A stretch of DNA of 64,000 nt from Parcubacteria group bacterium GW2011_GWD2_38_12 (lineage in GTDB: Bacteria > Patescibacteriota > Minisyncoccia > GWC2-36-17). Shown in pieces: positions 46,146 to 51,745 of the stretch. The position numbers and the translations under genes were made by a program. The DNA is taken from NCBI GenBank assembly GCA_000992345.1, contig LBUA01000001.1, forward strand, positions 81,711 to 145,710, in the 5' to 3' direction. The notes beneath the pieces were generated by a model. The model was not told the DNA's origin, did no database searches, and worked only from the letters and a program-made list of their open reading frames with translations. Each line of letters begins with the position of its first letter. The stretch's first letter is position 1.

Positions 46146-46841
46146 ATGGATTTCTCCACTGAACAAAAATATATAAAACAAGGTTACGATTTTGTGATTG
46201 GAATAGACGAGGCGGGGAGGGGGCCACTGGCAGGACCGGTTATTGCCAGCGCGTTGGCAATAACCAAGTTTAAAGTTGAAAGTTTAAAGTTGAAAGTGGG
46301 GGATTCGTCCTTGGCGAAAGACTTATGGTTAGAAGTGAAAGATTCTAAAAAATTATCGCCGAAAAAACGAGAAAAGCTTTTTGAAATTTTAACAACTGAC
46401 CCTGATATTAAATATGGAATCGGAATCATATCGGAAAAAGTGATTGATAAAAAAAATATTTTACAAGCAACATTGATGGCGATGAAGATAGCGGTAGAGA
46501 ATCTAATAAAAAAGGAACCAAAAATTTCCCCACTCGCCAGTCCGACGATCGTCGGACTGGCGAGTAAAAGAAAATCCGTTATATTAATTGATGGAAGAGA
46601 TATTATTGAAGATTTGGATTTTGACCAGCATTCCATTATAAATGGAGATAATAAAGTTTGGTCTATCGCCGCGGCTTCTATTATTGCTAAAGTCACGCGC
46701 GATAAGATAATGATAAAATATCACGAAAAATATCCTCAATATTGTTTTGACAGGCATAAGGGTTATGGCACAAAACTACATTTCGAAAAAATCGCCGAAC
46801 ACGGCCAATGCGAAATACACAGAAAAAGTTTTTTAGATTAA
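46146..46841 (+). CDS. rnhB: Ribonuclease HII
   Basis: VIGIDEAGRGPLAGPVIASAL active-site N-terminus. Contains a low-complexity tandem insertion and a 32-bp GC-rich perfect palindrome at 46533-46564. Confidence 0.85.
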   Translation: MDFSTEQKYIKQGYDFVIGIDEAGRGPLAGPVIASALAITKFKVESLKLKVGDSSLAKDLWLEVKDSKKLSPKKREKLFEILTTDPDIKYGIGIISEKVIDKKNILQATLMAMKIAVENLIKKEPKISPLASPTIVGLASKRKSVILIDGRDIIEDLDFDQHSIINGDNKVWSIAAASIIAKVTRDKIMIKYHEKYPQYCFDRHKGYGTKLHFEKIAEHGQCEIHRKSFLD

Positions 46842-46886: not shown

Positions 46887-47450
46887 ATGATATTGTCAGA
46901 TAAAGATATTAAAAAAATCCTTAAAAAAGGGGATTTATTATTTAGTCCGGAGCTAGAACCCGATCAAATCGGTCCAGCTTCCATTGATTTAAAATTAAGT
47001 CCGATTTTCAAAACATTCAACACTCAAAAACATAGTTTGCTTGATATTAAAAAAGGATTGCCGCCCAACTTTACGATAACCCACAAACTTAATATCGGCG
47101 AAAATTTCATTTTGCATCCCGGAGATTTTATTCTGGCCAGCACGGTGGAATATATAAAAGTTCCCGATAATATTGCGGTCAGGGTGGAGGGAAAAAGTTC
47201 TCTCGCTCGCATGGGAATACTGGTGCACACAGCCGGCTTTATTGACCCTGGCTTTGAGGGAACAATTACCCTGGAAATCAGCAACCAATCAAATTTGGCC
47301 ATCGCCATCTATCCTGGCATGTATATCTGTCAGGTTGCCGTTGAATATTTATCCTCTCCCGCAGAAGTGCCTTATAATAAACGAAAAAAATCATTATATT
47401 TAAAACAGAAAGAACCCACTGAAGCGGATATAAAGAATCTTTTTAGTTAG
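46887..47450 (+). CDS. dcd: dCTP deaminase (dUTPase fold)
   Basis: PASIDLKL, GKSSLARMGI and VHTAGFIDPGFEGTITLEISN motifs. Confidence 0.8.
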   Translation: MILSDKDIKKILKKGDLLFSPELEPDQIGPASIDLKLSPIFKTFNTQKHSLLDIKKGLPPNFTITHKLNIGENFILHPGDFILASTVEYIKVPDNIAVRVEGKSSLARMGILVHTAGFIDPGFEGTITLEISNQSNLAIAIYPGMYICQVAVEYLSSPAEVPYNKRKKSLYLKQKEPTEADIKNLFS

Positions 47451-47535
47451 TCATCTAAATTGACAGAGGTGCCTATTTCTTATAATCTGATTTTAGAGTT
47501 TTTTTACAATTGAAAAATGGATAAGGGAGGAAACG

Positions 47536-47958
47536 ATGAGAGTAAAAACCGTATTTATCGCGCATCCGATTAGCGGCGACATTAAAGGAAATGTGGTAAA
47601 AGTATTGGCAATTTGCGAGAAAATTCATTCAAAAGAGATAATTCCTGTTGCTCCGTATCTTGTGTCTTTGCAATATCTAGATGATGAGATTATTGAAGAC
47701 AGGAAATTGGGTATAGCCGCAAACTTAGAATGTTTTCGCAGAAAATATATTGATGAGCTCTGGCTTTATGGCGATAGAATTTCCAAAGGAATGGAACAAG
47801 AGATAAAACTGGCATTGAAATTGCGAATTCCCATTAAATCAAAAACCGCAATAACAAAAATAGCCCTGAAACTTTTTATTATGAAATCAGCGTTGAAATA
47901 TACAGAAAAATTCATGAAAACTGAAAACAAAAGGAGAGGCGGAAATGATAAAAGTTGA
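47536..47958 (+). CDS. Nucleoside 2-deoxyribosyltransferase-like (DUF4406-like) small protein
   Basis: VFIAHPISGD N-terminal motif and C-terminal ELWLYGDRISKGMEQEI resemble the NDT-superfamily fold. Weak assignment by pattern only. Confidence 0.35.
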   Translation: MRVKTVFIAHPISGDIKGNVVKVLAICEKIHSKEIIPVAPYLVSLQYLDDEIIEDRKLGIAANLECFRRKYIDELWLYGDRISKGMEQEIKLALKLRIPIKSKTAITKIALKLFIMKSALKYTEKFMKTENKRRGGNDKS

Positions 47959-49375
47959 ATTGCTTGGGTTGACGATGCTTGAAGAAGAATCAGGCAAAAA
48001 AGAAGTTGCTTGTGGCAAGGAGCTTGAAGCACTGATGTCTTTTGCGGCCTATGGATGTTATGAAGGCGAAAAGCCGCATATAGGCAAAGTGATTAATTTG
48101 AAAAACAGGATATTTGACACGGGACATCACACAATACTTCAGCATATATATGCGACATTTTGGCTGGAGGGGTTGGCAATCAGCGATTTTACCTTTGGAT
48201 TGCATCTTGCGCATTCGTTTTATAATTCCAGCCAGCGATCAGGCCGGTTTTGTTCCAGTATGTTTTCCAAGCCCGATTTTACGGCTCTGGCAAACTATAT
48301 TCATGCGTACTGGCCAACATTGAAAGACAGGCAATTTGCCGCTATTTTAGGTCTTGTGAGAAAAGGCGCGAAAATCTATGAAGATAATCTCATCGTTGCG
48401 ATGGAACACGCCGCGAAATATATCAAACAAGAACGGCCTCTTGCCACAGAAAAATATATCAATCAAAATGCTCTGAAATTTGCGCAAGAACAGTTAAGGG
48501 TATTTCTGCCGACCATATTTCCAACAGCCGCGACTTTCACAATCAACCTTTCAACACTTTCCAGTTTATGCCAAACAGCATGGTCTCCGACATTAAAAGA
48601 TATCTCTAGAAAAATGGCGGATTTAATCATCCAAAAGTGCCCAAATATTGCTTTTATGTTTGAATCAGTTAATTCCAAAGAATCAGAGAAATTCTGGAGA
48701 TGGACGCCGGATTTCAATTATGGAGATAATATCGAGGTTTTATACAAACCAAAAATTAAATTAATTGATTTAGAATATAATCCTGAATCTGCATTTCCCG
48801 AGGAATCAATGACTCACCCAGCTGATTTACTAAATTTTCACCCTTGTTTTATGAAAAACAGGAAAACAAGATTCAAGACAAAGGTGGAAATATCGGTGGC
48901 TACCATGGGACAAGATCAAAGGCACAGGACAACGAATAGAACTGAGCCGCGCATAACGGGAAATTTTTATTTGCCGCCGCTCGCAGCGCTTTGCAGATTA
49001 GAAGATGAAGCATTGGAAATTATGAATTTATATAGGGATATTGCCTGGGATTTATCGCAAGATCAAGATAATAAAACGCTTGTGACAGCGATTATTCCTT
49101 ATGGCGCGATGGTTGAATACGAAAAAGAATTTGATTTAAATTCTGCCATCCATGAGATGTCAAAAAGAGGATGCTGGTGCGCTCAAGAAGAGATTTATCA
49201 TTTGGCTAGCGGATTAAGAAATTTGATAGATCAGGGATATATGGATTTTCAGGAGAGAGATCTTTTAAAAATTTTTCTCCCCGCGTGTTTGAAAAACGGT
49301 AAATGCGGAGAAGGCGCAAGATATTGCGGACGCGATATCGGGCAAAAACCGCATTTTCCTGAAAGAAAAATATAA
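47945..49375 (+). CDS. ThyX-family (flavin-dependent thymidylate synthase-like) protein, elongated, with non-canonical active-site motif
   Basis: GHHTILQH aligns to the ThyX GHETPFEH motif. AHSFYNSSQRSGRF aligns residue-for-residue to RHRIASYNELSGRY, with both arginines replaced (A-H-S). At 476 aa it is about twice ThyX length, and the C-terminal half contains a QRHRTTNRTEPR stretch. Overlaps the upstream gene by 14 nt. Confidence 0.6.
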   Translation: MIKVELLGLTMLEEESGKKEVACGKELEALMSFAAYGCYEGEKPHIGKVINLKNRIFDTGHHTILQHIYATFWLEGLAISDFTFGLHLAHSFYNSSQRSGRFCSSMFSKPDFTALANYIHAYWPTLKDRQFAAILGLVRKGAKIYEDNLIVAMEHAAKYIKQERPLATEKYINQNALKFAQEQLRVFLPTIFPTAATFTINLSTLSSLCQTAWSPTLKDISRKMADLIIQKCPNIAFMFESVNSKESEKFWRWTPDFNYGDNIEVLYKPKIKLIDLEYNPESAFPEESMTHPADLLNFHPCFMKNRKTRFKTKVEISVATMGQDQRHRTTNRTEPRITGNFYLPPLAALCRLEDEALEIMNLYRDIAWDLSQDQDNKTLVTAIIPYGAMVEYEKEFDLNSAIHEMSKRGCWCAQEEIYHLASGLRNLIDQGYMDFQERDLLKIFLPACLKNGKCGEGARYCGRDIGQKPHFPERKI

Positions 49376-49537: not shown

Positions 49538-49631
49538 AAAAATAAAGCGGCGATTTCTTAAAGAAATCGCCGCTTTTTACTTGATAAACAAACTATTGAC
49601 TCCATCACAATTTTCATATAAAATAATGTTC

Positions 49632-49913: not shown

Positions 49914-50186
49914 TAAAGATTTAGTGTTGACAAGTTTATAATTTCGACTAAAATATAAATCTATTCCATTAAATTCAAATAGTTGGGTTAAGTAGTTCAA
50001 CCGCGAAGACTTTTACTATATGAAAGTCTTCGCGGTTGTGTTATTCATAAAGACATAACCGAAGAGTTTTTTAAAAAATAAATAGTTAATTGAGAGTCCA
50101 AATTTTTATAGTTGTTCCGAATAAAAATCCTCTTTTTTATTTATAAAAACGAGGTAGATTTCATTTGAGCAATGAAATCTTCTAGT

Positions 50187-51745
<1,559 letters not shown>

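Follow-up and report, generated by a model that had tools for sequence, protein, structure and literature searches.

The locus described here lies within a window of 64,000 nucleotides (the whole stretch of DNA analyzed) and comprises forward-strand genes for RNase HII, dCTP deaminase, a small DUF7768 protein and a ThyX-related protein of 476 aa, the last of which is deposited as 'hypothetical protein' (Table 1). Three open reading frames from dcd onward, a 14-nt overlap between the last two and several ThyX-like motifs had been reported in a first-pass annotation, and all of them were recovered as described. The overlap, ATGATAAAAGTTGA at 47945-47958, is shared by the end of the DUF7768 gene and the start of the ThyX gene, and a Shine-Dalgarno-like AGGAGAGG precedes it, still inside the DUF7768 reading frame at its 3' end. 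The start codon of the ThyX gene is supported by its homologues, which likewise start with MIKV.L. Between its stop codon and rpsP, a perfect hairpin with a terminator-like appearance likely marks the end of the operon.

Table 1 Features of the tandem ThyX locus (positions refer to the window; conservation was counted in 77 species-level genomes).
Feature	Position	Strand	Evidence
rnhB (RNase HII)	46146..46841	+	PF01351 E 2.8e-34
dcd, dCTP deaminase (dUTPase fold), 187 aa	46887..47450	+	TIGR02274 182 bits; PF22769 E 4e-44
DUF7768 protein, nucleoside 2-deoxyribosyltransferase-like, 140 aa	47536..47958	+	PF24963 E 5.9e-24; PHROG 355
Shine-Dalgarno-like AGGAGAGG	47932..47939	+	Sequence inspection; 5 nt upstream of ThyX ATG
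Tandem (two-domain) ThyX, 476 aa, stop codon included	47945..49375	+	Pfam Thy1 in two stretches, E 1.6e-16
N-terminal ThyX domain, aa 1-245	47945..48679	+	Thy1 E 9e-11; hhalign vs canonical ThyX
GHHTILQH, aa 60-67, = T. maritima G52-H59 (H53, T55, H59)	48122..48145	+	phmmer and hhalign
AHSFYNSSQRSGRF, aa 89-102: degenerate Arg-His-Arg, then Ser99-Gly100-Arg101-Phe/Tyr102	48209..48250	+	Conservation, n=77
E182-Q-L-R185 = T. maritima E144/R147, dUMP phosphate site	48488..48499	+	hhalign to E-D-A-R
C-terminal ThyX domain, aa 269-476	48749..49372	+	Thy1 E 1e-4, 22.6 bits; fold; hhalign
Q323-D-Q-R326-H327-R328 = Gln75 and Arg78-His79-Arg80 equivalents	48911..48928	+	Conservation, n=77
R408-G-C410-W-C412-A-Q-E-E-I417 = R174-x-x-x-H178-A-Q-x-E-I	49166..49195	+	hhalign to Cys-type ThyX
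C448-x5-C454-x6-C461, with C410 a putative metal site	49286..49327	+	Conservation, n=77
Perfect hairpin, 15-bp stem, between ThyX stop and rpsP	49544..49576	.	Consensus scan only

The assignment of dcd by the first-pass annotation was confirmed, the TIGR02274 score standing against a cut-off of 92.8 bits. Its description of the small protein as NDT-like and DUF4406-like stood in the first part, as the protein matches the PHROG 355 family 'nucleoside 2-deoxyribosyltransferase' (E 9e-12), but not in the second, since the protein is filed under DUF7768. A phmmer search of the PDB with this protein gave no match, and no solved relative is detectable by sequence. The rnhB gene is the upstream gene in an order conserved with the two nearest relatives, RNase HII also lying upstream of the ThyX gene in L087 and L088, and has no functional tie to ThyX. 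A 142-aa open reading frame upstream of ThyX in L088 was considered as a diverged DUF7768 gene and rejected. Whether the genome holds a canonical thyA or thyX had been raised as a check on the annotation; within the 64-kb window, there is no other thyA or thyX.

The 476-aa protein is a tandem ThyX, consisting of two fused and diverged domains with the ThyX fold in each half independently. Both halves, profiled separately as the first-pass annotation had proposed, matched Thy1. As a whole, the protein reached 61.1 bits against Pfam Thy1 (PF02511), above the family cut-off of 24.8, and 41 bits against the NCBIfam ThyX equivalog TIGR02170, below its cut-off of 87.9. In hhalign comparisons with the canonical ThyX profile, the N half was aligned over 186 columns (98.7%, E 3.7e-16) and the C half was matched at 93% (E 3.5e-7). 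The structure models agree with these results: for the full-length AF2 model (pLDDT 88, pTM 0.88), all 50 PDB matches listed by Foldseek were ThyX, each with a probability of 1.00, and for the C half modelled alone (pLDDT 82), ThyX proteins were likewise the only ones among the 50 PDB matches listed (E ~1e-6, probability 1.00, TM 0.52-0.60, ~189-229 alignment columns). An hmmsearch of PDB sequences with the C-half profile returned no ThyX and chance matches only, and the alignment of the N half with the C half was non-significant in hhalign; by sequence, the two halves are no longer recognisably alike. The assignment of the C half is therefore based on the Pfam HMM, the fold search and the hhalign comparison with Cys-type ThyX. 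None of the PHROGs families fits the tandem protein. With at least 740 homologues and motifs that are invariant in 77 species-level genomes, the tandem ThyX is an observation far beyond chance.

The distribution of catalytic residues over the two halves is complementary. The N half has lost the equivalents of the Arg-His-Arg motif and of R174/H178 and has retained those of GHxT, of Ser-Gly-Arg-Phe/Tyr and of E144/R147. Within its GHxT stretch, H61, T63 and H67 are each found in 77/77 genomes, and the same holds for E182 and R185. Ser99, Gly100, Arg101 and Phe/Tyr102 correspond to S88, G89, R90 and Y91; S99 and G100 are present in all 77 genomes, R101 and F/Y102 in 75/77 each. At the preceding positions 89-91, the genomes show A/T/V, H/S/N and P/S, and never R-H-R. 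When the protein is aligned by phmmer to the ThyX of M. tuberculosis and C. glutamicum, R-H-R falls opposite A89-H90-S91, while hhalign against the canonical ThyX profile moves the pairing by four residues to G85-L86-H87, so that the exact counterpart is alignment-dependent. The loss of the canonical arginines in the N half, as claimed in the first-pass annotation, is nevertheless robust because aa 69-97 contain no Arg or Lys at all. Such motif substitutions characterise the tandem family as a whole, its members from non-CPR phyla included.

The C half, for its part, has retained the Gln, the Arg-His-Arg and the R174 equivalent. It contains QRHRTTNRTEPR at aa 325-336, and Q323, R326, H327 and R328 are each found in 77/77 genomes and are invariant in a second, 515-aa class of tandem proteins as well. 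The Ser-x-Arg-Tyr loop is deleted, with hhalign placing a five-residue gap where the canonical profile has S-Q-R-Y-V. Further downstream, the R408-I417 stretch aligns to R-x-C-x-R-A-Q-W-E-I of Cys-type canonical ThyX; here, R408, C410, Q414 and I417 are each conserved in 77/77 genomes, C410 being the first invariant Cys. The equivalent of R165, a FAD phosphate ligand from a third subunit, is not clearly kept in the N or the C half. Across an alignment of 12 sequences including distant tandem proteins (~24% identity), S99, R101, E182, R185, Q323, R326-R328 and R408 are invariant, and conservation reaches 90% or more at H61 and T63. The motif RHRxxSxxxxSxR is thus complete only across both domains, and in neither alone.

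Active sites shared between subunits are a textbook feature of ThyX, which is also a target for antibacterial drugs. In the enzymes of M. tuberculosis and H. pylori, subunit A supplies the RHR motif together with the R174 equivalent, subunit C supplies the Ser/Arg/Tyr loop, and these form one active site (PMC6514825). Since these residue sets belong to different subunits in ThyX tetramers, two fusion proteins could rebuild a pseudo-tetramer. Overall, we consider it likely that the gene product is a true flavin-dependent thymidylate synthase built of two fused, sub-functionalised ThyX-fold domains. Arg-His-Arg for FAD binding, the equivalent of Gln75 and that of R174, which polarises the uracil, would come from the C-terminal domain; the Ser-Gly-Arg-Phe/Tyr substrate loop, the Glu/Arg pair that binds phosphate and the histidine of GHxT would come from the N-terminal domain. 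Two such chains would then form two complete and two dead sites, and the most likely arrangement is a dimer of fusions mimicking the tetramer with two sites live and two dead. To judge from the residues present, the tandem ThyX is probably catalytically active, and the reaction would be dUMP + CH2-THF + NAD(P)H -> dTMP. The upstream dcd would supply the deoxyuridine nucleotide (dUTP or dUMP), and the NDT-like gene would be a lineage-specific salvage companion. Of the two scenarios put forward in the first-pass annotation, the fused pseudo-dimeric ThyX with an asymmetric active site is the one supported by the Thy1 matches and the ThyX fold of both halves and by their complementary split of invariant residues. 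PGAP and JGI also name homologues of the protein FAD-dependent thymidylate synthase. Three observations speak against this reading, namely the score under the TIGR02170 cut-off, the R165 equivalent that neither half clearly keeps, and the second thymidylate synthase next to the tandem gene in 3 of ~80 loci. Such a natural fusion with complementary half-sites would be the evolutionary counterpart of mixed-mutant tetramer experiments, and per domain it would be expected to hold half as much flavin and half as many active sites.

A protein in which no single domain carries the complete ThyX motif might also be a pseudo-enzyme that no longer catalyses any reaction, or else have a regulatory role as a subunit working only with a separate canonical ThyX, as could be the case in L084, where a canonical ThyX is encoded in the same operon. 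However, a canonical ThyX lies nearby in just 1 of ~80 loci, and the catalytic residues are under very strong conservation; such conservation of complementary catalytic residues would be unexpected for a dead enzyme, and we regard this explanation as highly improbable.

The genomic neighbourhood of the family points to the dTMP pathway. Over 80 genome loci, the neighbours include thymidylate kinase, often directly adjacent, as well as dCMP deaminase (26 copies), dCTP deaminase and dUTPase, and further SHMT (glyA; 14 loci) and MazG. A second thymidylate synthase adjoins the tandem gene in 3 of ~80 loci, namely L037 (ThyA with DHFR), L084 (a canonical ThyX) and L001 (a ThyA-like fusion), and in these three cases the two enzymes could be non-redundant. 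The translational coupling of an NDT-like gene to ThyX recurs in the 86%-identical relative L087, with a 4-nt overlap. Neither the other 80 genome loci nor the relatives of 54-58% identity have the NDT-like gene beside ThyX; the coupling is limited to one genus.

These observations bear on a further explanation, according to which the protein is a neofunctionalised ThyX-fold enzyme that acts on another pyrimidine substrate (UMP, dCMP or a nucleoside) or makes another C5 product (such as hydroxymethyl), as part of a base-modification or salvage route shared with the NDT-like protein. It could draw on the coupling to the NDT-like gene here and in the 86% relative, on the second synthase adjoining in L001, L037 and L084, and on the score below the ThyX equivalog cut-off. 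There is also a precedent in PolB, which consists of a single domain and whose gene belongs to an antibiotic cluster. This Streptomyces paralogue of ThyX shares the ThyX fold, with an altered function, and was recruited to polyoxin synthesis (PMC5954106), but the gene in the window stands in a housekeeping dTMP context. Moreover, every counterpart of a uracil, phosphate or FAD ligand survives, invariant, somewhere in the chain, including the R174-type Arg that reads uracil O4; the NDT-like neighbour is confined to a single genus; and the family partners tmk, dCMP deaminase, dut and glyA are the textbook dTMP set. In addition, Chloroflexi outside Dehalococcoides were reported with a domain-duplicated ThyX only (Valas & Bourne 2009, PMC3224940). 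Taken together, we consider a changed substrate or product unlikely. The non-phosphorylated or different pyrimidine substrate suggested in the first-pass annotation is not supported, as the dUMP-phosphate and uracil ligand equivalents are all retained (the N half has those of S88/R90/R147, the C half those of R78/R174), and neither is the non-canonical or modified-pyrimidine route that it derived from the layout, as the neighbours found across the family include tmk, dCMP/dCTP deaminase, dut and glyA. The locus probably stands for plain dTMP synthesis by an under-studied structural variant, with no new pathway.

Compared with the canonical homotetrameric ThyX/FDTS (T. maritima TM0449, 1O26; M. 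tuberculosis Rv2754c, 2AF6/3GWC), the tandem protein has the same fold in both halves, the same overall set of catalytic residues, the same pathway neighbours and presumably the same reaction chemistry. It differs in having two domains per chain, with RHR and Ser-x-Arg in separate domains, and an additional four-Cys motif, and half of the tetramer-equivalent sites are predicted to be dead. The literature on tandem, fused or pseudo-dimeric ThyX that we found consists of a single sentence, in which Valas & Bourne (2009) mention an uncharacterised 'duplicated ThyX' in Chloroflexi and a few other species, with no residue analysis (PMC3224940). The proteins meant are likely those of a class of 515-535 aa from Ardenticatena (Chloroflexi), Kryptonia, Armatimonadetes, Fidelibacterota and other phyla; if so, and given that Chloroflexi outside Dehalococcoides were reported with no other ThyX, the tandem form must be a working thymidylate synthase in those organisms.

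This longer class shares with the window protein its database annotation and its domain order, the RHR-less domain coming first and the RHR-bearing one second. In its N half, RHR is likewise lost (S-H-P) and S-Q-R-Y kept, and its C half has SQDQRHR, R-x-C-x-x-AQEEI and C...C-P-E-G-x-R-Y-C-G. An alignment of both tandem subfamilies has invariant columns at H87, Y93, N94, Q97, S99, R101, E182 and R185 in the N half and at Q323, R326-R328, R408, C410, Q414, C448, C454 and C461 in the C half. The two subfamilies are 22-26% identical, and the alignment shows an inter-domain linker that is tens of residues longer in the 515-535-aa class; with its 476 aa and shorter linker, the window protein therefore falls into a compact subfamily from Patescibacteria, 441-478 aa in length. 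Much of the Patescibacteria, with at least 740 clusters of proteins at 90% identity, would accordingly make thymidylate with a never-characterised form of the enzyme, a large set of other phyla separately has a likewise never-characterised tandem form, and curated equivalog models score the tandem form under their cut-off. The Chlamydia ThyX is reportedly ~529 aa long and reportedly active. The two-domain form also occurs among phage thymidylate synthases of tandem length, as indicated by the structural alignment of the window model with, for example, the predicted structure of the 491-aa protein of Microcystis phage Ma-LMM01 (BFVD A0A7D4; ~500 columns, E 3e-8, TM 0.55), which differs from it in sequence (12% identity).

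Single-domain Cys-type ThyX proteins of Patescibacteria and DPANN (~237 aa) share R-x-C-x-R-A-Q-x-E-I and a Cys-rich C-terminal tail with the C half of the tandem protein and are likely of its ancestor type. In contrast to the tandem form, they carry the complete RHRIASYSQQSQRY motif in one domain and presumably form ordinary homotetramers. The four cysteines C410, C448, C454 and C461, each conserved in 77/77 genomes, are common to the 515-aa tandem class and the ~237-aa single-domain CPR ThyX, and the motif is covered by no solved ThyX structure. C410 lies two residues past the R174 equivalent, and C412 takes the place of the FAD-contacting H178.

One possible explanation for this pattern is a redox-active iron-sulfur cluster, with ferredoxin or some other low-potential donor replacing NAD(P)H as the source of electrons. 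The invariance of the four cysteines, their sharing with the 515-aa class and a very large set of single-domain CPR/DPANN ThyX, the closeness of C410 to the R174 equivalent, the replacement of H178 by C412 and the lack of the motif in any solved ThyX are in line with such a cluster. However, four-Cys sites are more commonly structural zinc, the spacing of the cysteines differs by subfamily (x5+x6, x5+x7, ~x11+x6), and the neighbourhood shows no recurrent ferredoxin or related gene; we therefore hold an iron-sulfur cluster to be improbable. Put more broadly, there is a small chance that either the four cysteines hold an iron-sulfur cluster or another redox-active metal that connects the flavin with a low-potential donor, or the two dead pockets serve as regulatory nucleotide sites. 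In either case, there would be a class of ThyX with a distinct mechanism that had gone unrecognised. It would comprise the tandem enzymes along with single-domain ThyX from CPR/DPANN in their thousands, none of them structurally characterised. Besides that, stand-alone C-half-like proteins of ~240 aa were considered as a possible two-gene form and rejected, as they look like gene fragments or frameshifts; for one of them, a 190-aa piece lies on the same contig and its cluster contains a 446-aa protein.

The 476-aa protein encoded downstream of dcd, deposited as 'hypothetical protein', fits best into a class of tandem ThyX proteins, with two ThyX domains in one chain, as a compact member from Patescibacteria. 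As the first-pass annotation had noted, the preceding NDT-like DUF7768 ORF overlaps the tandem ThyX ORF by 14 nt (ATGATAAAAGTTGA), and the protein contains each of the motifs given there, GHHTILQH, AHSFYNSSQRSGRF and QRHRTTNRTEPR. A Shine-Dalgarno-like AGGAGAGG is found 5 nt before the ATG, and this start codon is supported by the N-terminus MIKV.L, which is shared with the homologues.

Features of the window, with orientation and supporting matches
Feature	Position	Orientation	Match
GC-raised segment	22001-24000
ORF in GC-raised segment	21966-23201
ORF in GC-raised segment	23307-24146
rnhB (RNase HII)	46146-46841	+
32-nt palindrome within rnhB	46533-46564
dcd, dCTP deaminase, 187 aa	46887-47450	same direction as two next ORFs	TIGR02274, 182 bits
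NDT-like DUF7768 protein, 140 aa	47536-47958	co-directional	Pfam DUF7768 E 5.9e-24; PHROG 355 ('nucleoside 2-deoxyribosyltransferase') E 9e-12
Tandem ThyX, 476 aa	47945-49375	co-directional	Pfam Thy1 in two stretches
Hairpin, 18-bp stem	49998-50038
16S rRNA gene, complete	50180-51745	+

Scanned alone, the N half (aa 1-246) matched Pfam Thy1 with an E-value of 9e-11, and the C half (aa 247-476) with 1e-4 (22.6 bits, slightly below the family cut-off). The full-length AlphaFold2 model, for which 37 homologues served as input, was confident (pLDDT 88, pTM 0.88), and all 50 PDB matches listed were ThyX. A C half devoid of a ThyX fold had been named in the first pass as part of a refuting outcome, but the separate model of aa 250-476 (pLDDT 82) showed that it has this fold, with ThyX only among the 50 PDB matches listed (E ~1e-6, probability 1.00; TM 0.52-0.60 across ~189-229 alignment columns). 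Judged by its sequence, the C half is strongly diverged. Its profile found no ThyX among PDB sequences, and no significant sequence similarity was detected between the two halves. Against a profile of single-domain Patescibacteria ThyX, the C half matched with 93% probability (E 3.5e-7) and the N half with 98.7% (E 3.7e-16).

Residue equivalences are given in the numbering of what we take to be the T. maritima ThyX sequence, which behaved as ThyX in our searches and alignment. In the N half, H53/T55/H59 (as H61/T63/H67) are retained, together with the loop for the substrate, S88-G89-R90-Y91 (as S99-G100-R101-F102), and E144/R147 (as E182/R185); this half has no Arg or Lys at aa 69-97, the expected place of R74/R78/R80, and no equivalents of R174/H178. 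The C half has retained Q75 and R78-H79-R80 (Q323 and R326-H327-R328) as well as R174 and the AQxEI motif (R408 and A413-I417), lacks E144/R147 equivalents and, aligned to the canonical profile, shows a five-residue gap exactly at the S-x-R-Y position. Among 77 full-length tandem ThyX proteins, each from a different species-level genome, H61, T63, S99, G100, E182 and R185 of the N half and Q323, R326, H327, R328 and R408 of the C half were invariant (each 77/77), and R101 and F/Y102 were each found in 75/77. Positions 89-91 were A/T/V, H/S/N and P, and the reported loss of both RHR arginines from the N half is therefore a family trait and no local accident. Our literature search found no description of such a complementary motif split between fused ThyX domains.

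Together, the two folds and the complementary invariant residues support the earlier idea of a fused pseudo-dimeric ThyX with an asymmetric site. According to a review of the Mtb and H. pylori ThyX structures, subunit A supplies the RHR and the R174 equivalent, subunit C the Ser/Arg/Tyr loop and subunit B a further Ser/Arg of the same active site (PMC6514825). From this assignment we infer that a dimer of fused chains could rebuild a D2 pseudo-tetramer, in which only two complete sites would form, pairing the C half in the role of subunit A with the N half in that of subunit C.

The C-half profile, searched against 1.84 billion representatives, yielded 102 clusters at E <= 1e-30, mostly of 440-480 aa, and a second tier of mostly ~430-560-aa proteins. 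The latter share the design of the window protein, their own N half carrying ...LHSHPFYNSEQVSQRY and their C half SQDQRHR, R-L-C-x-N-AQEEI and C...CPEGxRYCG; in the alignment, the same catalytic residues and cysteines were invariant at only 22-26% identity. Searching with these proteins retrieved a set of at least 4,607 sequences 510-560 aa long. The set spans Kryptonia, Armatimonadetes, Bacteroidota, Fidelibacterota, Saccharimonadales and Ardenticatena maritima, a cultured member of the Chloroflexi, and many of its sequences are already named FAD-dependent thymidylate synthase. Chloroflexi outside Dehalococcoides are reported to possess only a domain-duplicated ThyX and no other thymidylate synthase (Valas & Bourne 2009, PMC3224940); this is likely the same kind of protein, in which case those organisms must rely on a working tandem form. 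The 491-aa 'thymidylate synthase' of Microcystis phage Ma-LMM01 (BFVD A0A7D4) and a viral one of 461 aa (A0A6B7EUB9) both align structurally with the whole window model over ~500 columns, and given their tandem length, two-domain ThyX thus occurs in phages too. Close homologues of the compact tandem ThyX (40-43% identity) were also seen in MAGs from gut and rumen whose titles name Alphaproteobacteria, Rickettsiales or Candidatus Enterousia (L051, L056, L060, L061, L064, L072, L073, L085); if these bins are correctly assigned, the compact form would extend beyond Patescibacteria.

Four cysteines (C410, two residues past the R174 equivalent, C448, C454 and C461) were likewise invariant (77/77) and are common to the longer 515-aa class and to ~237-aa single-domain ThyX, frequent in Patescibacteria and DPANN. 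None of the solved ThyX structures reaches this motif; a structural zinc site is our conservative guess, with a redox cluster as a conceivable alternative. The pattern R-x-C...C-x5-C-x7-C is kept in the single-domain proteins (alignment A4; L084:4928-5545), with at least 8,000 proteins scored in the search, and may be a metal site of these ThyX proteins, an unstudied subfamily. Both the half-site architecture and the Cys4 site merit biochemical study.

To address function, ORFs were called at 80 genome loci with tandem ThyX homologues, neighbours were clustered and cluster representatives annotated with Pfam. Thymidylate kinase was among the neighbours, often directly adjoining tandem ThyX on the same strand, together with dCMP deaminase (26 copies), dCTP deaminase, a 141-aa dUTPase and MazG; an SHMT-like protein, identified from its sequence without a Pfam scan, was present at 14 of the 80 loci. 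The family-wide neighbourhood is an ordinary dTMP module, which lends no support to the suggested non-canonical route or different pyrimidine substrate. The NDT-like neighbour, previously read as a sign of another pathway, occurs only in the window genome and an 86%-identical relative (4-nt overlap with ThyX), and is missing beside tandem ThyX in relatives at 58% and 54% identity; its coupling was therefore added at the level of the genus, plausibly for deoxynucleoside salvage, and is no sign of a different pathway. The class would best be described as a structurally distinct, functionally ordinary flavin-dependent thymidylate synthase. A non-redundant function beside another thymidylate synthase is a minority possibility, raised by three loci (L037, L084, L001) at which a second such enzyme adjoins the tandem gene.

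At L084:3651-9060, one operon comprises a large two-domain dCTP deaminase, canonical ThyX, SHMT, thymidylate kinase and tandem ThyX, so both forms stand side by side in one genome. At L037:6446-10546, ThyA is followed by a DHFR-like gene of 161 aa and then by tandem ThyX, tmk and dut; the 61% identity of this ThyA to E. coli ThyA suggests that thyA-folA entered the operon by recent horizontal acquisition. L001:3788-5236 encodes a 482-aa fusion of MtrA-like, ThyA-like and PterinBD-DUF4346 domains, flanked on one side by a two-domain dCTP deaminase and on the other by tmk plus tandem ThyX, an unusual ThyA-type architecture for a Parcubacteria genome.

Elsewhere in the window, a hairpin precedes the 16S rRNA gene, which is followed by PAS and histidine-kinase genes; no 23S gene was found in the 12 kb after it, and the rRNA genes thus appear unlinked. 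The GC-raised segment reaches 0.44 against a background of ~0.35 and gave no rRNA hit. Within rnhB, a perfect GC-rich palindrome (CTCGCCAGTCCGACGATCGTCGGACTGGCGAG), present as a single copy in the window, falls together with an in-frame insertion of 12 aa (PLASPTIVGLAS) that neither of the two nearest relatives has in its RNase HII (80% and 68% identity), resembling the in-frame palindromic-element insertions of Rickettsia.
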